Positions 14,641 through 51,038 of a DNA stretch of 64,000 bases are shown here, in pieces. Origin of the DNA: Yuukianura sp. NJ FZ-2021 (taxonomy: Eukaryota). The DNA lies in assembly GCA_046563655.1 (NCBI GenBank), contig CM102290.1, positions 13,516,001 through 13,580,000 on the forward strand, read 5' to 3'. The notes beneath the pieces are model-generated. The model did no database searches and was not told the origin of the DNA. It worked only from the letters and a program-made list of their open reading frames with translations. How positions within the stretch are numbered: position 1 is the stretch's first letter; each line of letters begins with the position of its first letter. The translations under genes were made by a program, and so were the position numbers.

Positions 14641-15709
14641 CCGTATTTTCCCTAATAGTACACCATACCTAAATAGTACACCAGGTCCCTAATAGTACAC
14701 CACCCCCAGAAGTCGAAAAATTAATTAGTACACCGTCCCAAATAGTACACCAGGTCTCTAATAGTACACCAGGTCTTTGGTAATGTAGCATTTGGAGTAT
14801 AACACCCGGAGAAGTTAGTTGAGCTAATATTATAGCTCTTCATTTGTTGTGTTTATCTCCACGTTACTTCTCTAAAACTGTTCAACTAAAGTCGACTGGA
14901 AATGACAAGGCACACGCTACGCTTGTTCTAGCGGCCAAAGGTGACGGAACAAATCTGAAACCATTCATCGTTTTCAAACAGGGAATTCGAGAGGTAGCGA
15001 AGCTTCAAACCGAAACTGGGATCGTAATTCGTAGCAGTTCAAATGGTTGGATGAACGATAATCTGACCTGTGACTTGTTGAAAACTGTGTTCACACGATT
15101 TTCCTTCAAACATCGTTTGTTAGCTTGGGATTCTTACAAATGTCACTTCAGGAAATCTACTAAAAATGAACTCATTGGCTACAACACCACAATGACAGTG
15201 ATTCCCGGGGATGTACAAAGTATATTCAAGCTCCAGATTTGTGCTGGAATAAACCCTTCAAGGCTTGTATTACCGAACTTTACGATTCTTGGCTAGCAGG
15301 AGATTCCGACAAGGAGTATACAAAAGAAGGAGGGAATTTGAAGGTATTTCATAACTAATAATTTGTACTGTCGTAGGTTTCTTTTAAATATAATTTATAT
15401 AAATTCTTAATTATTAATGCTCCATCCAAGAAATTGATGACTAAATGGGTGAAGATTGCCTGGGATTCATTGTCAACTGAACTAATCAAAAACTCTGAAA
15501 GCTTCCGAAAACGAAGTGGAGTAGTTTTTAGTAATTTAGAAATTATTTTCTCCTGATTCCTAAACGTTTTAGTTAAGAATAAAATCCTCATTCTTAAAAA
15601 ATTAATTAGTACACCGTCTCTAATAATACACCAGGTCCCTAATAGTACACCACCCCCAGAAGTCGAAAACAAAATTAGTACACCAGGTGTACTATTTGGG
15701 AAAATACGG
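14641..15709 (+). mobile_element. Internally deleted pogo/Tigger-like DNA transposon with DDE_1 transposase remnant
   Basis: 24-bp TIRs (CCGTATTTTCCC[T/A]AATAGTACACC, 23/24 match), TA flanks and repeated subterminal AATAGTACACC motifs. ORF 14844-15296 has TLVLAAKGDG..LKPFIVFK, SSNGWM, LLAWDSYKCH and VIPG, followed by a frameshift. Confidence 0.9.
14844..15500 (+). pseudogene. Truncated, frameshifted pogo-family transposase
   Basis: Only the catalytic DDE_1 segment is present. The frame shifts after VIPG, and IQAPDLCWNKPFK continues in another frame. Confidence 0.85.
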
Positions 15710-35791: not shown

Positions 35792-38700
35792 ATGAAGGCA
35801 GTCGGCTGCCTCATCACCCTCTGCCTTTTGGGTAAGTTTTCAAAATTTCGAACTTGAAAAAACTTTTTGAAAATTGTCAAAATTTTATCATAATTTCTCT
35901 GTTTAGCCGGATTCATCGAAGCTTCTGACCAATATGCTTGGCAAGTTGGGAAGAGCTACAACTACAAGACCAAGGGACGACTAATGGCCGGAATTACTGA
36001 AATCAACACCCAATACGCCGGGATGGTTCTGTCTTACAGCATGGAACTCACGCCCATTGGTCCAAATCGGTTGATCCTGAAACCCGCGGATTTCAAAATT
36101 GAGGAACTCAATGAGGAACAAGATGGAGGCTGGAGAGACGTTCCTGAATTCAAGGGCGAAACTCCAGTTGAACTCAATCCTGAAATCCTCAAGTACTTGG
36201 AGTCACCCATCGAGGTATTTCTTTGCAAAATTTCATAAAAACATAAAATTTCAAATTTTGAAAAACGGAATTTCATATTTAAAAAAATATTAGGTCACAT
36301 TCGAAAAAGGTGTCGTCGAGTCCATCAAAGTTGACCGGAACATGCCAAACTACGCCATCAACATCAAGAGGGTAAGTTTTTCAAAGTAAAATTTAAGTAA
36401 ATTTTCAAAATTTTTAGCCGCGATGTTCAAAATTTGACGTTATTGTTTTTATTTTAGGCTCAAGTCAGCGCCTTCGTGCTTGACTCCACTGCTCAAAATG
36501 CCGTCATGACTGGAAACGCCAACCGTCAATTTCCAAACCAAGTGCGGCCACAAGACGCAACCACCCAAAGCGGCAGCTTCTATGAAACCATGGAGAAAAC
36601 CGTCACTGGAGAATGTAAACTCAAAATTCAAATTTTCAGTTTTGTCATTTTTAGAACCCGAAATCAAAAAATTTGATCCAAAATTCTGAAAATTTTCAGG
36701 CGAGACATACTACACCGTGAGCGAATCTGGTCCATACGACAGCCCACGTACGGATGAACTTAAGTCTCAGTTGGCCGATGACGACAACAGCGACAGTGCT
36801 GAGAACAAGGCAAGTGGAGAAAGTCGGCAACAGGATGACGAAAGCAGTGAAAGCGACGACGAAGACTGGAAACGGAACAAGTACATGGCCTACAAGGAAA
36901 TGATTCAGCGCAGCAGCGCCGAGGTAAATTCAAGCAAATTTTTCAAAAAAAAAATTTGTCCATAAATCAAAAAATTTCAAATCTCAAGTAGAAATTATGC
37001 TCAAGACTAATTTTTTTTTTGTTGATTTGTTTCCAGGAGGAAGGATTCTTGGCTCCCGAAGTTTTCCATAAGTTTTGCGATGGCAAGAACCGATTGATGG
37101 AGTTCGTCAAAACCGTGAACTACTCAATGTGCCACAAGAAGCCAGTTTTGGGCTACGCCAGCCCATCTCTCATCGTTGACAGCCGTGCTGGAGATAACAG
37201 CTTCGGATCTGCCATCTCTGTAAGAAATTCTCCATTTTGCTCAAATCGCAAAGAAAATCTGCATTTTGTCCTCAAATTTTGAAGAAATTCTGCATTTTTG
37301 TCCTCAAATTTTGAAGAAATTCTCCTTTTTTGTCAATTTTGAAAGGTCAACTTTGAAATTATTCCATTTTTTTTTAAACTTTCAGCGTGTCACCTACTCT
37401 CGCTACATTGTCTGCGGAACAGACCGGAAACAGTACACAATCCTCAAGATCGAACAAGAGGAGTACATGTACCAAGGAACTCTGCGCAAAGAGAAAGTTC
37501 TCGGCGGAACTGCCAAGAACACGACTCTGCGCAGTGTCCTCCCAACCAGCCGCACTCCCGTTGGACCCAGCAATCCAATCGAAACCGATTTGGTCTACAA
37601 GTTCAGCCCACAAGAACAAAAGATGCGCCGTGACGGAAAACTGAAAACGGGATTCGAATACCAAAGTGGGGATGATAGCTCCGAATCGAACGAAGACAGC
37701 AGCGAAACGACGCCGAAGTACCGTGCACGACGATCTGCTTACTACTATGCCCAACAGGCAGCACAGCAACCGGAAATGGAACAGAACCAGCAATACCCAT
37801 ACCAATACGCCGCAAACGGTAAGCCGAAATTTTGAAATTCAATTGATTTTGGCCAACTTTTTTTAAATTCAATTGATTTTGGCCAAATTTTTGAAATTTT
37901 GAACATTTTAGAGCCAAATGAACAAGGACTCTTGCCACTCCCAAGCTTGAACCAACCACCATTGAACCCCATGTTGGCCTCACCACTTAATGCTGACGGC
38001 ATGAAGGACCGTGTTGGAGTTCTGTTGGAGGAAGTTGTCCGTGATATCCTTGGCAACAAGCCAATCGCTGAGCAGGAAACTGTTTCAAAGATTGCCACCA
38101 TCGCCAAAATCCTTCGATACTTGTCAAATGCTGATTGCGAAGTTCTGTACCACCGTCATGCCGATAAGACGTAAGCACAAAATGCCTTAATTTCAGTTTA
38201 GCTTCTTTAAAAAAATTAAAAAAATGTTTTTGTGCAGCCAAACCGAAGAGGATCAGATCCGCCGCAAGATCTTCTTGGAAGCCGTAGCCATGGGTAAAAA
38301 AAAATTTTTTTTTTTTGAAAATTTTGAGAATTGAAAGGTTGTAACTTTTTCAAATTTTACCAATAGCCGGAACCAACCCGAACATCAAGCTTCTGATTGA
38401 CCTCATCGCTGCTCAACGTATCACCGGAGAGGATGCCAACCAACTTATCATGACCTTCTCCATGTACATCCGAACTCCAACACCCGAGCTCATCAAGTAC
38501 TGGCACGTAAGTAGTTCTTTCATCAAAACCAGAATCAAAATTTTTTCAAAAAAAGTTGTATTTTTCAAAATAATTTTCCTGTTTTTCAGGACAAACTTGT
38601 TGACTTCACTCCCAGCCCAGACAACATGGACCAACTTCACACCACTTCCTGGTTGGCTTTCACCAACTTGCTCCACGACGCCTGTGTTAACACCAAAATT

Positions 38701-41700
38701 GGTAATGTTTCAAACCTTGTTCATCTCAAATTTTTTGAAAATTTAATATTCTTTGACCAAAATCTTCAAAAATCTGTTTTTTTTTATGTGCAGCCAACAC
38801 ACGTTACCCAGTTCAAGTCTACGGAGAGTTCTGCAACCCGCAACTCGCTGGCCAGTACATTCCACACATTGTGAAGCACTTGAAATGGGCCTTGGAGCAA
38901 ATCTGCCACGACGAACACAGTGTCGGAGCCACCCATTGGGCCACCGTCTTCTTAGCTGCTCTCGGAAACACTGGACACCCACTTATCGTTGAAACCGTTC
39001 AACACGTTCTGGACACCGTGAGCGATCGCTACATCAAGAGCAAGGCCATCTTTGCTCTGAAGCGACTCGCCATCTCCCGATCTTCCCAGAATGTGCCAGT
39101 CACCGAACCAATGGCTGCTGACCGCAAGAGCCGGTACGACATATTTCAAATATTTCAATTTTTTTTTCAAATTTGAGCTGGGCGATGCAAAATCGTATGC
39201 TAAACGTATGTTTTTGCAGTGACATCTTGACTGATGAGGTTGTTGAGAAGAAGGTTCTGCCTGTTCTCCTCTCCGCTGCTTTGGACAAAACTGAAGACCA
39301 AGAAGTGCGCATGGCCGCTATCGCTATGGCTGTCCGTTGCACCCCAGCTGACATCACAATCTGGCAAACCTTGGCTTATTCAACATGGTTCGAGACCAAC
39401 CAAGAAGGTGAGTCCAATTTGTTTTCCAATTCAACTTAAAAAAAAACGAAATTTTGAAAAACGAAATTTTGAAATTTTTTTTAGTCATGTCATACATCTA
39501 CCACATGATGTCGAGCTTGTCCCACCTGAAGCACCCAGTCGATCCAACGACCTGGATTGCGTAAGTTACGAAAACAAAACGTTTAAGAAACGAAAACTAA
39601 CAACAATATTTTTTTTTAGACACAAGAAGGCTCGCGCCGTCTTCCCAATGGTCAAACCAATCAACATTGGACTTCCACGAAGCCGAACGTACCTCGAATC
39701 AGCCTGGTTTGACGAAATTCAATCCGGATTTAGGCACCAGTGGTCTCAATTTGGATCTGAAAACTCCGTTTACCCGAATTCCTTTTACTACCAAAACTAC
39801 AAGACGTACGGAAGTGGAGCCATTGCTGAGAGCCCAGTTGAATTTGCCGTCCATGGACACACCTTGAAGCACATCCTGGACCACATCGTCGGTAAATTCA
39901 CGCGTGTCACGCAGTCCGAAGCTGAAGGAAACGAACTCATCAAAATCATTTCCGACTTGCTCCACATTGTTGACCGGTAAGTTTCAAAATTTTTACGTTT
40001 CGCACTGTTTCTCGAACACTTATTTAAAATTTGTTGGTTGCAGTGAACAAGATGAGACTCCACAAGCCTCTCTCCAATTCAAACTCCGATCAGAAATGGA
40101 ACGCATCTTCTCTGTCAACCGAGAAGTCATTGACCTCTGGATTGAGCAATTGAAGAAAGAGTTCATGCCACAATTGATCACTGGATTCCCATTCAACTAC
40201 CAAAAGGCATGGAAATTGTCATCCGTCAACTACGAATTCCCAACCATCTTCGGTATTCCAATCCAAGTCAAGATGAGGTCACACAACTTGCTGTCGTTCC
40301 GTGGAGCCGTCAAGCCAATCCTGACTGAGGGCTTGAGAGACGTTCAGTTCAACATCGAAATGCACCCAATTGTGTCCTACAAGACTCATGGTCATGTTTC
40401 CATCAAATCTCCACTCACCGGAAAGGCCTACCAAGCTGGTAAGTTTCAAATTTTGGTTAATTTTCAAGAACGCGGGAATTGAATTCGAAATTTCCATTTT
40501 AGGTGTCCAACATCATGCCGTTCTCGAATTTCCATTCCGCGCTATGTTCAGAAAGACAGCTGTCGGAACCCTCGAATTTGCCATTTCCCCAACCTACATT
40601 GACGAACCAACCATCGGAGGACAAATTGACGTCTTCACCTTCCACCGTCGTGTAAGCGACCAATCAATTTAACAATTCGAAACTCGAAATTCGAAATTTG
40701 ACACTTACTTTTACCTCTTTACAGCCATACACCATCATCGTCCATGACGAGTGCTGGCCAACTTCCCACAAGGAGGGAGGCGAGATGAAGATCGTCCATG
40801 CCGTTGAGACTCCGTACAAGGAATCACAAGAATTCGGTCAGAAGGCTCTGGGATGGGCTTTTGAACTTGTTCAAGAGACGGAATACCAACCAGAAAAGGA
40901 GAAATACGCCGGATGGAGACAGTACTTCGCCAGATTCGGTGGCACTTATGGAGGATGGTTGCACCATGGATTCATGGGAGCTAAGACTCTTCGTCTTGCT
41001 GAACGCCGGTTGGTCCTGGACAGTGTCAAATCCACCACCAAAACACTCTGGATCATGGTTGCTGGAGGTAAGTCACGGGACTCTTATTCGGTAGATACAT
41101 TTCAAGGTTAATCATAACCTGTCACTTTTCCTTACCAGAATACCACCGACATGTTAAACACGCAGTTAACGAAGTATCGTCCGAAGAGGAACGAAACCTA
41201 CCGCAAGATTCTGACGAATCCGAGTCCGGAGAACAGCCCAAGTACTACCAGGTAAGCTATCAATTTTGAATTCGTTCTCAATTTCAGTTTTGATTGATTT
41301 TACAACTGATTTTTCAGGCCTACGACTCACAAACCGGTGACTACCAATCATACCAGGACAAGAAACTTCAACAGCGCCCATACCAACAGTACCATCAGTA
41401 CAAGGCTGAGCGATACCAAGCATCCCAGGAGAAAGACAGCAGCGAGGAGTCGTCCGAAGAGTACCAGGGAGAATTCAAATACTACTCTGGCAAACCCGAA
41501 AACTACCGAGCTTCATACGAACACTACGACCAAGCTTACTACCAAGCTTACCCATACCAATACCAAGGAGATTACCAATACCAAGGAGATTACCAATACC
41601 AAGGAGATTACCAATACCAAGGAGCTGAACCCACCGCTGCTCACCGTAAGTGCTCCATGTTGTAACCCATTTTCAATTCAAATCCAAATTTTACCGTAAC

Positions 41701-43904
41701 TTTTCAATTTTTAGACCACCGCTGGTATGTGATTGCCGTTCTCGGAAAGACTGCCCCACTTCACGCACCACTCAAACTCCGAAGCATGCAACTTCACTTC
41801 GAATCCTCTCCATCAACTGTCCAATACTTGCTCTACGTTGACGTCGCCAGGCAACTAACCCAAGTCAGCTGGTCTGCCGGAGAACCAACTAAGGAACACG
41901 TCGGAGAACTGCCAATGAACTCAGGCGCCGTTGAGAAGATCCGCAAGGCCATCCACTCTATTCTGACCAAGGGCCAGGAACCGTTCTGTGCTAAGTACGA
42001 AGGAAAATACCAGTTCCCAAGATGGGCTAACCGTGACAGTCTCTTGACTCTCCGTGAGAACCTCCTCCGCCAAGACCTTACCGTTAAGCTCCAGGGTGAA
42101 TTGGCGTTTGGCGACAACTGCCGCAACAAGGTCCACAATGTCACCTACACCGGAAAACTGTACCGTGACAACGACATGCTCGAGTACGCCAAGGATGGAT
42201 CATATGAAGCCCAACAGTGCAAGGAAGATGAGAAGAAGAAATTTGCATCCTCCCCAGTTTGCATCCTCAACAGCGAACAACAGGCAGCAGCTCTCAACGT
42301 AGCCGAATTCGAATTCAGGGTAAGAAATTCATTTCTTGTTCATCACAATTAGTATAATATTAATCACAATTAATGGTTGTTTGAACTTTGTTACAGTCGA
42401 CTCCACTTCCAGCTTCTGTTGTCAATGCTACTCTTCAAGTCCGAGAATTCTGCAAGGCCTGGTGGTACGAGTACATGTCTTATGACCCAATGCCAATTCG
42501 TCCAATGAGCCCAAGAATGATCGATCATTACTTGAGGGTCAAGGCCGAACTTACCCCAGAAATTGACTACTTGACACTCAAATTCTTCCGCCCTGATGAA
42601 CAAATCTTCTTTGAGGACATCAAATTGGGCCACTTCGCCAAGGCCGTATTCCCACTCACTGCCACGCAGACACTCAAGGAAAACGTCCGTGATCGCGTTT
42701 TCAAAACCGAAGGTATACCAGCGATTCTGATTCTAAATGCTAAATGTTGCTGTTGAATTCTAAACTTACCGAATTTGTTTATCATTTCAGCTTCATGCTC
42801 AGTCGAAAGCAAATATGTCAACACCTTCGACAATGTGACGTATCACTTTGACCCCGCCGCTGCCACTGGCTGCAAGCACGTCCTTATGCAAGACTGTAGC
42901 GGAGAACACGCCGTGTCCGTTTTTGCCGAAAACCTTGCCTCAGCCAACTTGATCACAACGGTTCTGCTTGAAGGCGACTTCCGAATCACGCTCATTCCAA
43001 CCATCAGACAACAGTATGCCCAAGAGTCCCGTGCCTACGTTACGGCCACGTCCGACAACGTCATCATTCCAGGCCAAGGACGAGTTCTTGTCAATGGAGA
43101 GCCAGTCAAGGAACTTCCAACTGTTGTCTACGACTCAAACGGACACTTCATTGCCCGCATTGAAGAAGCCGCTGGATCTGCCCTCCAACTGTTCTCAGAC
43201 GATGTCAAGGTCACAACTGACGGACGACACATCGTGGTCTACCCATCCAACGACCTCCGTAACAGCACTTGCGGTAAGTCTTCATCATAATACGCAGTGT
43301 TTCCTTTGAAATTGTTGAAAACGTTTGTTTTTCGTTTTCATCTTTAGGTCTTTGCGGTAACTTCGACGTGAGCAAGACGATTGACTTCCGCAGCCCAAGA
43401 GATTGTCCATTGAGCTCTGGAACGTACATGTACGCTGCCTATGCCTTCGAACTCCCAATGCCCAAGACTGATGCTGCCGCCATCCCACCAGTCAAAGTCT
43501 GCAAGATTGACGCTGAGGTGAAGAAGGAGATTGAGAAGGAGGACAGTGCCTGCCAGGGTGACGAATTCGTGCCACTGTACACCGATGATAAAGCCGGAAA
43601 CTGCAAGGAGGTATTGATCCAACAAATCGGGGATGCCGTCTACGGCATTGTCCGAAATGCTCTCAAACCAATCCCAGGCGTCAACGGAAAGAAGTGGGCC
43701 GAGAAGGCAAGAAACAAGGTCCGTGAGTTGCTCCAAGGAGCTGTCAACGCCAAGGATATTGCCGACATCATTGCCACCGGAATTGCCAGCATGATTCCGT
43801 ACGTCGGTGGAGTCGTGAAGCCCCTGATCAAGTTTGCCTGCGAGAAGATTGTCAAGGTCCTCTGCGAGAAATCTGGATGCTGTGATGCTGTCTACTACTT
43901 CTAA
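35792..43904 (+). CDS. Vg: Vitellogenin (large lipid transfer protein family), about 24 exons and roughly 2,000-2,100 aa by manual exon assembly
   Basis: Signal peptide MKAVGCLITLCLLAGFIEA. Vitellogenin_N start WQVGKSYNYKTKGRLMAG..QYAG, plus NIKR, VKTVNYSMC, LAALGNTG and EVRMAA motifs. Acidic Ser tracts with an RARR cleavage site. vWD domain (YVNTFDNVTY..CKHVLMQDC..TCGLCGNFD). GT-AG introns throughout, stop TAA at 43902-43904, AATAAA at 44122. Confidence 0.93.
41555..41626 (+). repeat. Coding 18-bp tandem repeat x4 in vitellogenin (YQYQGD)
   Basis: TACCAATACCAAGGAGAT three times exactly, plus a fourth copy ending GCT. Confidence 0.95.
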
Positions 43905-45166
43905 GCACCTAAACACAAACGGACGCAAAATCACATTTCAAAATCAATCTAAAACCTTAACTTATTAATTTCAGTTACCAAAATGTAGTAGTCTCTTCTA
44001 TCGTAGTTTGTATTGGCAGTCTTTTCCCTTCTTCTTCCGACCAGTTTTGTGTACAGCCCTCTCTTTGTCTCGTACAAACAGTTGACCTTGTACAATTTAA
44101 CATTCAGCTGAAGTTGGATTGAATAAACCCCCTGGCATTTAAAAAACATTGTTCTTCACTCTTACTTTATAACAAATACTTCATTGTTGTCCAGGGTCTG
44201 AGTAGCGGTAGGAAACGTGACCTGGTTTGGTTAAGCTTCCAGGAAGTAGTTTCTCGTGACCGAAAGGGCAGTAGGACAGAATGTAACGCCTGTGGACAAG
44301 AAATGGAAGGTCAAGTGGCACTTTTTAACTGCAAAGGTTCGAAAAATGTAATGGATTCCATTAGGAAGACAACGTCGCAGGCACTGCTTCCTATTCATTA
44401 TTTGGCCAATCTGATGCATCCTGTCTAACTTGGTAAGAAACTGTCGGAGCAAGTAATTGAGCTCGCCGTTACTTATGCAGCAGTTGAAAACGAAAGGGCT
44501 CCAGGAATTTTAGCAGTCTTTACACAGTACAGAGCACAAATGGGACCACTCCGAAAAGTTTTGTTTTCTAACACTGGTTTAAACGACATATCTGCTACGG
44601 GTTGGTAGAACTTATATTGTTTTTGTTTAATTAAAATTTCAAATTGATTCGAAAGGGTACCTAATGAAAATATGCCAGATCTTGGCACCCATTTTTAATT
44701 TATTGTTGTCTGAGTAGAACGTACCAAGTATTCAGGAATCAGCGAAGTAGCTATAAAACAGTTCTATTTGTCGGGTAAAGATATTGTGATCTTCTAATTG
44801 AAACTGATGCTTGATTACCTTCATCTTCACAGTTACAATTTTAGAAGCTTCAAATTATTGACATGTCTCATTCTGATTAGGTTAAACGTAACAGAAACGT
44901 AATGCTTTTCCCGTAAGAGCCGGGAAAAAAACTTACGTAGACTGTCCAATTGAATTTGGAAAATGTCAAGTGATGTTATTCAGCTTACAAAAATGGAAAT
45001 AACGTTAATCTGGAACAATTCGTTATTAAACTCCTTTTAAAGTCTTTATTAGATTACATGAAACTGAAACAGTAATGAAAAAGAACAATTACGAAACCAT
45101 TCTTCAAAGTGAAAATCTGTACTTGTCTGGAATAATAAAGGGAGGTAAGATGATTCGGCCTTGCCT

Positions 45167-45728
45167 TTAGACCAGCAGTTTCTCAATTTCTGTCTGGACC
45201 GATAGAATCTGTGGCTTGAGCTGCGATCCTTCGTTGGTAGTGACGGAGGCTGCAATTACTGGTCGTGAGACCCCGCATGCACGACCAAGGGCTGAAACCA
45301 AAGCAAACGTTGAATCTTTTTTCAATTTACGTCTTCTTACGTTGTTGGTGAATTGCTTAAGATTGTTTATGTTAATCCTACCTTGCTTGGATCTGACAAA
45401 GACGTATGGGACGTTCTTGTCTTCACAGAGCAAGGGAAGATGGAGAAGAATCTCCAGCGGTTCGGCATCTGCTGCCATCACGATGAATTCCGAGAGACCT
45501 CGGTTCAGCGTCTTGGTGGCTTCATTTGCCCCTTTCTTCAATTGCTGGTAGTTTGCTGCTTGCTGAACAATGTTCAGGATCTTTGTAGTCAAAGCAGCAT
45601 CAGCCAACGGGTAGGCTTTCGGATTGACCTCTTCCGTCTACAGTTTAAACAATTAATTTTAGTAATCAATTTGGTACTGAATGATAGCACCTATATAAAA
45701 AGCAACTCGAAGTTCTAGTACTTACCAT
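45167..45728 (-). CDS. SNU13: SNU13/NHP2L1 (15.5K, hoi-polloi) kink-turn-binding protein; exons 45726-45728, 45382-45637, 45167-45291; 127 aa
   Basis: The spliced product [48 protein letters not shown]...[35 protein letters not shown]...IEKLLV is the conserved 15.5K sequence. Splice sites are canonical. Confidence 0.97.
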
Positions 45729-48324: not shown

Positions 48325-49584
48325 TCAATCGTGCTCCATATCTTGCGATTCAAATATCTCAAAATAATCGTCAGAGCTAAAAGCTGAACGTAGCGTAGAT
48401 TTCACATCCTCTGTCAATTCCGCAGAATCCATCAACACTTTAAATTGATCTTTCGCCTCTTTTTTTGTTGTAATGTTATTTTTACAGTCATAACACATCT
48501 TTTGTGTGGGGCAACTGTGACCTGTGAAAGATATTTTTATTTCTGATACAGGAACCTTTAATTCATTTACAAATACCAATTCGGGATGTGTCCATTCGCC
48601 ATTCGCACTGTAACCTAATTCCCAATCGAAAGTATTCGTCTCAACCATTTTTAGTGGGGTTATTTGATCTCCATCATCATTAATGACTCCAAACTGTATA
48701 TGGTTAGGAGGTGAAGGAGAACTTGATTCTGGTATAAGTATGGTCTGGGAGTACTCGTACCAGAATTTTCTCGTACCAAATACATAACCTACCGGTTTAT
48801 CTCGGTCGAGGTGCGAAGTAGACTCAATTGAAAATTCAAAAATGACGGAGCCATAGCGATTATCTAGAACGTGTCTTTTGGGGTTTTCAGGTATATTGCG
48901 GACCTCATCTTCGTTGAGCACGACACCACACCAAACAAGGGGCGGCGTCGTACCCGGATTAGTAGAAGAATTGGTGAAAGTAATTTGTTGATTCTCGATC
49001 CCCTTAATAATTTGACGTGCGTTAACAGTTGATGTGGCATGCCTTAGCAGTCGTCCTTCAATTAACTTTATGTTAGTAGAATAATCGATGTCTTTTGGCA
49101 GGGTCAGTTCGTAGTCTGTTACAATATTAAGTGGACCTACATATCGTGGCCAAGATACAAAAGTTACAACTTCCGGTTCGTTAGAAAAATGGTGCTTCCA
49201 TAACTTAATCACTTCCACAATTTTTGTGATTAATCTTTGACTATTTTGTCGTCCCACTTCTTTAGCAGACGCCCATTGTGTGCATAGTTGTACAATTTTG
49301 GAAAGGCGATACTCTGGCTTCCGATTTATCATATAAAGCTGGTTGGATGTGTTTGGAGGAATTGGCGAAGTAATTCCACGGTGTATCGCTTCGATTATGA
49401 TCGTTGCAAAAAGAAACTGAACAGGCGCGGAAATTTTAGACTGCGCTCGTTGCATTGCAGCCCACAGTGTCCTTGCGTCGCCGTCGGCAATACGGACAAC
49501 GTACGTTACAGTTCGATGTTCTTCAAGTTGATTTGCAGCTGTAATCACTTGAGCAACTGTCTCCCAATCATCGACTTGCGTCAT
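48325..49584 (-). CDS. Single-coding-exon 419-aa protein; putative VHS-like N-terminal domain plus ADP-ribosyltransferase-like domain
   Basis: Longest uninterrupted ORF in the window, in AT-rich DNA. An acceptor (tttag at about 49600) just upstream of the ATG suggests a spliced 5' UTR. Domain calls are by motif resemblance only (see findings). Confidence 0.75.
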   Translation of the reverse strand: MTQVDDWETVAQVITAANQLEEHRTVTYVVRIADGDARTLWAAMQRAQSKISAPVQFLFATIIIEAIHRGITSPIPPNTSNQLYMINRKPEYRLSKIVQLCTQWASAKEVGRQNSQRLITKIVEVIKLWKHHFSNEPEVVTFVSWPRYVGPLNIVTDYELTLPKDIDYSTNIKLIEGRLLRHATSTVNARQIIKGIENQQITFTNSSTNPGTTPPLVWCGVVLNEDEVRNIPENPKRHVLDNRYGSVIFEFSIESTSHLDRDKPVGYVFGTRKFWYEYSQTILIPESSSPSPPNHIQFGVINDDGDQITPLKMVETNTFDWELGYSANGEWTHPELVFVNELKVPVSEIKISFTGHSCPTQKMCYDCKNNITTKKEAKDQFKVLMDSAELTEDVKSTLRSAFSSDDYFEIFESQDMEHD

Positions 49585-49832: not shown

Positions 49833-50094
49833 CAAGGTGCCTTGACAACCGAAATACAACAAGTTGTATTTGCTACACCAGGTTATTCAGTAATTCGGGG
49901 TTTGCAAAAATCTTCCTCCAAACAACCCCCCCCCCCCAATTTCCCCCCAATTCCTATTCAATTACATACAAATCATTACCATAGAAAGGCACGGCGACGC
50001 AAGTTTTGCAAATTATTTGAGAAAATTAAAAACACCGACTTACTGAATAACCTGGTGTAGAATAAACAATTTGTTTGTTTGTTTGCCCACCTTG
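49833..50094. mobile_element. hAT-type MITE, CAAGG family A (copies at about 18829-19030, 24954-25268, 27252-27509, 61286-61509)
   Basis: Termini CAAGGTG...CACCTTG with an exact 8-bp TSD ATGACGAC. A CTACA(C/A)CAGGTT / AACCTG(G/T)TGTAG internal inverted motif is shared among copies. Confidence 0.85.
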
Positions 50095-50396: not shown

Positions 50397-51038
50397 AGTA
50401 GTTAGCACGTAAGTACCCGTAGTCAAAAATACGTCCTTGAACGGTCGTAAAACAATGTTTGTATACAAACAAGATCTCGACCAGAATTTTATGTTGAAAT
50501 GTGGTCGTTCAATAGCACTAAAAGTGTCGGTAAATGAGACTGTGACATCATCATACAGTTCGTCATGTTTCATCACTCTTTCTCTTCAGTGCAGTTGAGT
50601 AGAAAAGAGCGCACGCGTGCGAATTAACAAAAGCCGTCCTAAAAATGAGAAAAATATTGGGTTATACTTTGCCACATTTTCCTCCACTCTTTGTTGGAAC
50701 GAATGACTAGGAACACGAGGTGCGAGTGAGGACCCCGTTCTGGGTTGTGCTTTGAAACATTCCCCTCCCGTCCGCACTGGAAGGAGGATGAATGCTGGAA
50801 GGAAGGAGGAGATGAGAGCGTTCAACTGCTCCTTTCTGCTCAACTGCACTGAAGAGAAAGAGTGATGAAACATGACGAACTGTATGATGATGTCACAGTC
50901 TCGTTCACCGACACTTCTAGTGCTATTTAACGACCCATTTCAACAAAATTCAGGTCGAGATCTTGTTTGTTTACAAATATTGTCTTACGACCTTTCAAGG
51001 ACGTATTTTTGACTACGGGTACTTACGTGCTAACTACT
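50397..51038. mobile_element. Non-autonomous Polinton/Maverick-like element (mini-Maverick)
   Basis: Inverted arms of about 210 bp (50397-50610 and 50827-51038), termini AGTAGT...ACTACT, and an exact 6-bp direct repeat ACTGTA on both flanks (50391-50396, 51039-51044). Confidence 0.75.

Follow-up and report, generated by a model that had tools for sequence, protein, structure and literature searches.

An Intact Single-exon Gene

The window analyzed here is a 64-kb stretch of the genome of Yuukianura sp. NJ FZ-2021 (contig CM102290.1, positions 13,516,001 to 13,580,000), in which the GC content lies at ~35-48% and averages about 38%. Its longest stop-to-stop frame is a 419-residue open reading frame (ORF) on the minus strand, the subject of this report, and the runners-up have 305 and 249 residues. 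The coordinates of the ORF, of its domains and motifs, and of the surrounding features are collected in Table 1. By our own arithmetic from base composition (~38% GC), the chance of 420 stop-free codons is ~3e-13 per start. A stop codon lies in frame one codon 5' of the ATG, and the ORF was judged to be full length by comparison with relatives of 409-493 residues; most of the relatives found have 400-490 residues. A first-pass annotation of this DNA had described an uninterrupted 419-residue frame with exactly these end points, and the frame was recovered as described; the strand, which the annotation did not give, is added here. To judge by its sequence, the animal genome has in this ORF a genuine and intact gene that codes for protein in a single exon.

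The encoded protein (the window protein) falls into three segments: an N-terminal stretch of variable helices (residues 1-135), a conserved domain that extends over residues ~140-370 and most likely has a very divergent ADP-ribosyltransferase (ART) fold, and a probable H-C-C-C zinc knuckle with a short helical tail. From the motifs and the predicted fold described below, we infer fold membership, residue roles, activity, target, and biological role, and put the probability at roughly 0.55 that the protein represents an undescribed, highly divergent family of ARTs of the H-Y-E type (diphtheria toxin/PARP/DarT/Tpt1) equipped with a zinc knuckle.

Table 1. Positions in the 64-kb window of the ORF, its domains and motifs, and neighboring features; fractions are numbers of aligned family rows
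Feature	Positions	Strand	Details
Intronless complete ORF, 419 codons + stop	48325-49584	minus	Stop codon 48325-48327; ATG at 49584
Variable helical N-terminal region, residues 1-135	49180-49584	minus	Helices 7-18, 37-48, 53-68, 90-105, 112-132
Conserved C-terminal domain, residues 140-370	48475-49167	minus	Beta-rich; ART-like predicted fold
Motif L-R-H-A-T-S, residues 180-185	49030-49047	minus	H182 16/20, T184 16/19; candidate ART strand-1 histidine H182
Motif L-V-W-C-G, residues 216-220	48925-48939	minus	Position 218 Y 14, W 6, F 1 of 22; G220 17/23; strand 216-221
Motif N-R-Y-G-S-V-I-F-E-F, residues 242-251	48832-48861	minus	N242 18/23, R243 20/23, Y244 21/23, G245 23/23, F251 19/23
Family-specific hairpin motif G-T-[KR]-x-[YF]-x-x-E-x-S-Q, residues 270-280	48745-48777	minus	Strands 265-274 and 277-284; G270 23/24, T271 22/24, K/R272 24/24, E277 22/24, S279 20/24, Q280 21/24
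Motif W-T-H-P-E-L-V-F, residues 331-338	48571-48594	minus	W331 22/24, H333 21/24, E335 20/24 (A x3, T x1); strand 331-339
H-x-C-x5-C-x2-C, residues 356-367	48484-48519	minus	H356 24/24, C358 24/24, C364 22/23, C367 23/23; loop, then short helix 365-368
Three-helix C-terminal tail, residues 371-419	48328-48474	minus	Helices 374-387, 392-401, 404-417; pLDDT about 83-95
Vitellogenin/apolipophorin-like large multi-exon gene	37200-44000	plus	Vitellogenin_N, open beta-sheet, VWD
L7Ae-family gene	45167-45637	minus	Short intron read through in stop-to-stop frame
RhoGEF gene	58.2-58.7 kb
DDE_1 (pogo/Tigger-type) transposase domain match	14823-15296	plus	E 5e-9; likely transposon remnant
Nested inverted repeat upstream of ORF	50397-50490/50945-51038 and 50503-50610/50828-50935		Arms of 94 and 108 nt; 94-95% complementarity
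Further inverted repeat upstream of ORF	49858-49903/50030-50075		46-nt pair, beside G-run

Conserved Motifs of the C-terminal Domain

Conservation was counted in a 25-row family alignment (A3). Mean identity to the window protein is 28% over residues 140-370 (24 rows), 13% over residues 1-135 (13 rows), and 16.5% over the C-terminal tail (residues 371-419). The C-terminal motifs quoted in the first-pass annotation are found at the residues that it named, namely LRHATS at 180-185, LVWCG at 216-220, NRYGS at 242-246, GTRKF at 270-274, WTHPEL at 331-336, and the set H356, C358, C364, and C367. They coincide with the conserved columns of the family and are therefore beyond chance.

Within the first of these motifs, H182 is a candidate for the histidine of the first ART strand. 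The aromatic residue at position 218 is a candidate for the first nicotinamide-stacking residue and Y244 for the second; both follow H182 in the sequence order expected of the nicotinamide-stacking tyrosines of ARTs. The hairpin motif may be an element of the acceptor site, and E335 is the candidate catalytic glutamate, as judged from the model. W321 and F353 are also invariant (24 of 24 rows each). The best-conserved feature of the family is the H-x-C-x5-C-x2-C sequence, and the near invariance of its four residues supports the earlier suggestion of a Zn site; it is a probable zinc knuckle.

Predicted Fold and Structural Neighbors

The structure predicted by AlphaFold2 from the single sequence was unusable, with a predicted local distance difference test score (pLDDT) of 38.6. 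When 25 family sequences were supplied, the mean pLDDT was 70.2 and the predicted template modeling score 0.67, with values of 84-96 for residues ~160-416 and mostly below 60 for the N-terminal region. The C-terminal domain of this model opens with a strand (residues 179-184) that contains H182, followed by a helix (186-194), two strands (200-203 and 216-221), and two short helices. The next strand (247-252) begins immediately after the NRYG sequence and is succeeded by the hairpin (265-274/277-284) and by further strands, the last of which are formed by residues 331-339, 342-345, and 349-353; the Cys-rich loop and three helices complete the chain. The strand-then-helix arrangement around H182 corresponds to the H-x-T histidine feature of ARTs, with A or S rather than G as the middle residue. 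The signature of PARP-type toxin ARTs is given in PMC3482391 as "HG[ST], Y, K, E," and the H-[AS]-T motif of the family resembles the HG[ST] element quoted there.

A Foldseek search of the model against PDB and BFVD gave no matches at E<=1e-3. When the 992 Foldseek candidates were re-examined, 15 of the 50 rows listed were found to cover the C-terminal domain, and 13 of these 15 are members of the ART superfamily from five families (Tpt1, DarT1, a diphtheria-toxin homologue, CopC/OspC3, and PARP1-3). The best row in a structure search independent of Foldseek is also an ART. The alignments of six entries for PARP1-3 cover model residues ~175-361: those of PARP1 and PARP3 start at model residue 175, corresponding to PARP1 855 and PARP3 377, seven residues before H182, and end at model residues 354-361 for PARP1 (1005-1009) and at model residue 355 for PARP3 (532). 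With H862 and E988 as the catalytic residues of PARP1 and H384 and E514 as those of PARP3, the offsets, which derive from the ends of the ranges and not from residue alignments, place H862 and H384 on H182 and place E988 and E514 at about 337-340, on the same strand as E335. The pairing of H182 with E335 that had been proposed for the catalytic site thus fits the first and last catalytic residues of the PARP alignments, but the assignment of E335 is weakened by its replacement with A or T in some members of the family.

Searches of the Atlas by language-model similarity gave no usable match for the whole protein. For residues 140-419, the named clusters retrieved were a phage DarT/PARP cluster (0.83), Arr (0.79), and a molluscan Tox-ART-HYD1 cluster (0.78), which at scores below 0.9 are leads only. 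A Nucleocytoviricota cluster without a common family was another neighbor (0.81), and two Nucleocytoviricota DUF5846 (PF19164) clusters lay near the ART clusters at 0.82 and 0.81.

Evidence Bearing on the ART Assignment

Several results weigh against membership of the ART superfamily. No Pfam ART family matched the window protein at E<=10, the 22 aligned family sequences (the window protein and 21 relatives) at E<=1, or seven further members at E<=0.1; the first two thresholds also hold for the other Pfam comparisons described as made at the same thresholds. All of the Atlas scores, as noted, are below 0.9. Profiles of the C-terminal domain were compared by hhalign with profiles built from prokaryote genomes (20 DarT, 9 KptA, and 21 Arr sequences), and the probabilities were p = 0.14 for DarT (score 16.9, a value matched by 2 of 40 column shuffles), 0.34 for KptA, and 0.51 for Arr. 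The genuine ART families are themselves barely linked by this method (DarT-Arr, p = 0.33; DarT-KptA, 0.015; KptA-Arr, 0.028), so that the hhalign result is uninformative rather than negative. In these non-significant alignments, LRHATS and the helix that follows fell on the "YHITH..NL..I" sequence of DarT and the "LYHGT" sequence of KptA.

The identity of the catalytic glutamate also counts against a straightforward assignment. Of 24 rows, 4 have A or T in place of E335, and E277, conserved in 22, is an alternative candidate. Judged by the ends of the PARP ranges on the model, E277 is less likely than E335 to be the catalytic residue. For comparison, PMC11543638 gives the catalytic glutamates of DarT1 and DarT2 as E152 and E160, respectively.

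A different explanation of these results is that the domain lies outside the ARTs altogether and has either a new fold or that of another zinc-dependent enzyme, such as a hydrolase or nuclease using H333, E335, and E277 together with the H-C-C-C residues, and that the ART matches reflect a common arrangement of β-sheets. Such an origin of the matches sits poorly with the agreement of five ART families in 13 of the 15 domain-covering rows, with the ART at the top of the Foldseek-independent search, and with the three ART families found independently among the language-model neighbors. The elements of the domain also follow one another as in ARTs: a strand with H-x-T and a helix, then an aromatic strand, helices, an aromatic residue, and a strand with E followed by hydrophobic residues. 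We consider it unlikely, on this balance, that the assignment is mistaken at the level of fold. The ART-like C-terminal domain anticipated in the first-pass annotation is supported, though weakly, by motif conservation, the structure rows, and the language-model leads; no ART hidden Markov model (HMM) or profile matches it significantly. The domain may also resemble the C-terminal domain of PHYHIP proteins; Pfam gave no PHYHIP match at the same thresholds.

Possible Mechanism

If the domain is an ART of the H-Y-E type, NAD+ would be bound in a cleft lined by H182 on strand 1 (H-x-T), the aromatic residues at positions 218 and 244, and E335 in the WTHPE sequence. The ADP-ribose would then be passed to an acceptor held by the GT[KR]..E.SQ hairpin, which is specific to the family, together with the zinc knuckle. 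DarT and Tpt1, the nearest structural neighbors, act on nucleic acids; only these neighbors and the patchy distribution, lack of introns, and lineage-specific expansion of the family described below suggest a nucleic acid target and a role in defence. Our best guess is that the protein would be an effector that ADP-ribosylates nucleic acid (or protein) in genetic conflict or defence.

Some PARP-like domains are non-catalytic binding modules, and the window protein might similarly combine an ART-like fold with loss of catalysis, as a pseudo-enzyme that binds NAD+, ADP-ribose, or nucleic acid. The substitutions of E335 noted above and the absence of H182 from 4 of 20 rows point in this direction, as does the failure of the sequence comparisons to tie the family significantly to active ARTs. 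Moreover, invariance is greatest at the presumed zinc ligands and the tryptophans (24 of 24 rows at W321, F353, H356, and C358), which look structural or binding in character and not catalytic. On the other hand, the window protein itself keeps all of the candidate catalytic residues, and the conservation of polar residues (N242, R243, T271, K/R272, E277, S279, Q280, and H333) suggests an active site. Several PARPs without the catalytic Glu are also still mono-ADP-ribosyltransferases. A pseudo-enzyme appears rather improbable.

The N-terminal Region

Residues 1-135 had been read in the first-pass annotation as a VHS (Vps27/Hrs/STAM, PF00790) domain that would direct the protein to endosomes or ubiquitin. 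The region does resemble VHS in being an all-helical N-terminal segment of ~135 residues, but five helices are predicted instead of eight, and these have pLDDT values below 60, at which models match unreliably. No VHS, ENTH, or CID HMM was matched at the same thresholds as before, and the three sequence anchors on which the reading was based show no conservation: only one of nine aligned rows retains W7, and the columns of the remaining anchors hold various residues. There was also no VHS protein among the fold matches listed for the model. The VHS assignment is accordingly not supported, and neither is the proposed endosome or ubiquitin targeting, which was inferred from it. The position of the helices before the ART-like domain raises the possibility that they might be a PARP-like helical regulatory subdomain.

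Relatives and Distribution of the Family

An exhaustive phmmer search of 1.84 billion representative sequences identified 22 relatives at E<=1e-3, five of them at E<=1e-10, with matches that span residues ~116-412 of the query. The four best have E-values of 7.6e-18 to 1.4e-12 and 31-39% identity in matches within residues 141-412. The window protein itself has no match above noise in Pfam, NCBIfam, PADLOC, PHROGs, or the sequences of PDB; its best Pfam score was for LPD28 (E 0.077, 13 bits versus a cut-off of 27). The description of the gene as an orphan thus holds with respect to named families but not in the strict sense, since the 22 relatives exist. A word-index homologue search was empty when the single protein was the query; with a profile, its sole match was a Folsomia protein.

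Five loci of the springtail Folsomia candida belong to the family (LOC118437992, LOC110857239, LOC110855970, Fcan01_16368, and LOC118434595), as do ACA1_339380 of Acanthamoeba castellanii and two proteins of Willaertia magna. The remaining relatives are metagenome or read-assembly proteins. For six of the locus names of the members, no mention was found in the papers searched. A search for related loci with a subfamily alignment gave one metagenome contig (L041; 7.1 kb, 33-38% GC), in which the family gene is a single uninterrupted frame of 463 codons and the only other stop-to-stop frames are two shorter ones of 128 and 142 residues. As a lone frame in AT-rich and otherwise ORF-poor DNA, this gene looks eukaryotic and intronless. 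Taken together, the sequences indicate a small eukaryotic family that evolves fast and has not yet been named, with members in a springtail, two unrelated amoebae, environmental eukaryote contigs, and this animal.

In a quick maximum-likelihood tree, which has very long branches, omits 10 of 33 proteins (fragments, near-duplicates, and two vitellogenin matches), and precedes a thorough search that is unfinished, the window protein groups with environmental sequences and the amoebae, apart from a clade in which paralogues of Folsomia occur together with other environmental sequences. Many proteins of the latter clade bear an additional C-terminal module that ends in "YYKDW." In the subgroup P0005, P0008, P0010, P0012, P0014, and P0016-P0020, this conserved module has the form "FALSVP...R..L..MQ...F....F..I..WE....YYKDW"; it is lacking in the window protein. 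All four rows without E335 (P0010, P0014, P0016, and P0018) fall in this subgroup. For both of the environmental relatives P0010 and P0016, the longest contig on record measures 25,686 bp and is likely the same one, and the Folsomia members P0012 and P0025 are each recorded with a scaffold of 3,548,872 bp; both pairs suggest local clusters of paralogues.

Comparison with Known Systems

In bacterial anti-phage defence, the modification of DNA and RNA with ADP-ribose by DarT-type enzymes was discovered only recently, and few eukaryotic enzymes of this type are known. DarT (PF14487) itself, the toxin of bacterial DarTG systems, which ADP-ribosylates ssDNA, gave no HMM match at the same thresholds. 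The window family differs from it in being eukaryotic and about twice as long and in having N-terminal helices, the GT[KR]..E.SQ hairpin, and the H-C-C-C zinc knuckle; DarT is not known to have such helices, hairpin, or knuckle. No macrodomain or NADAR domain was present among the 16 window ORFs that were scanned, a scan that included no search aimed at a DarG-type partner. The NAD+-binding lobe of the RNA 2'-phosphotransferase Tpt1/KptA (PF01885) likewise gave no HMM match, and neither the N-lobe of Tpt1 nor its catalytic set, Arg-His-Arg-Arg, was identified in the window protein. The catalytic domain of PARP (PF00644) shares with the window protein a helical region that directly precedes the ART-like domain.

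Pierisin and CARP-1 are animal ARTs that target DNA, with a patchy distribution and presumed roles in defence. The window family is similar in being animal-encoded and patchy, but its motifs and structural neighbors are of the H-Y-E type (diphtheria toxin/PARP), whereas pierisins and CARP-1 belong to the cholera toxin-like ARTC branch, as stated in PMC11543638.

A more specific proposal is that the family is a eukaryotic counterpart of DarT, that is, a nucleic acid ADP-ribosyltransferase with its own zinc-knuckle acceptor module. It would serve amoebae and soil animals as an effector of innate immunity or genome conflict, and its patchy spread between distant eukaryotes may have been by way of their viruses or symbionts. 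This proposal is speculative and, in our judgment, unlikely; if true, it would define a new class of eukaryotic defence enzymes that ADP-ribosylate DNA or RNA. The broader assignment to the ARTs would, if correct, add a new branch to that superfamily, with an H-Y-E-like motif set and a zinc knuckle. The family is conserved and its fold is predicted with confidence; it is still unnamed and lacks a Pfam model, and no paper that names its members was found. It offers a testable case of defence-like enzymes distributed patchily among eukaryotes, and even if the ART assignment fails, it is a well-defined, uncharacterized predicted fold with clear candidate active-site residues.

Genomic Surroundings and Origin

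The flanking genes are animal genes with multiple exons, in agreement with the intron-dense neighborhood reported in the first-pass annotation. Immediately upstream of the ORF, two inverted-repeat structures, at 49858-50075 and 50397-51038, look like foldback or miniature inverted-repeat transposable element (MITE)-type elements. They would fit an ORF that rides along with a mobile element or virus or is left over from one, or that has arrived recently by horizontal transfer, and that is not a host gene with a host function; this explanation concerns origin and not fold and may overlap with the other readings. The lack of introns in the ORF among intron-rich neighbors, the patchy taxonomic spread of the family (springtail, Amoebozoa, and Heterolobosea), and the clustering of paralogues (P0010 and P0016 likely on one contig; five loci in Folsomia) could be taken in the same sense. 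However, the repeats all lie upstream and do not bracket the ORF as terminal repeats, no transposase, integrase, or capsid ORF was found within several kb, and the window holds no second copy or paralogue.

The G + C content at third codon positions (GC3) can be read in two ways. The value for the ORF, 0.35, is low compared with 0.52-0.60 for the vitellogenin and L7Ae exons but near the 0.40-0.42 of three other host ORFs and the background. It fits a weakly expressed resident gene and carries no clear sign of recent foreign origin. Nor were relatives found in viral contigs of IMG/VR (three peptide-pattern scans and one motif scan): the scan with a degenerate DNA pattern for the WTHPE motif returned six loci, none of them a family member by hmmsearch, while L041, the positive control, scored 342 bits. 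The family was also not found in a profile search of 401 Pseudomonadota genomes, where the sole match was at chance level (E 0.005, with three internal stops). The chance that the ORF is such a passenger seems slim in view of these results.

A search of the window against Rfam gave no match. The L7Ae-family gene is presumably of the SNU13/NHP2L1 type. The Vitellogenin_N, open β-sheet, and VWD pieces of the vitellogenin-like gene were matched at 38.3-43.3 kb, and this gene lies where the GC content of the window is highest (42-48%; GC3 0.53-0.60). One of its exons, at 41666-42352, is 58-60% identical to two metagenome proteins.

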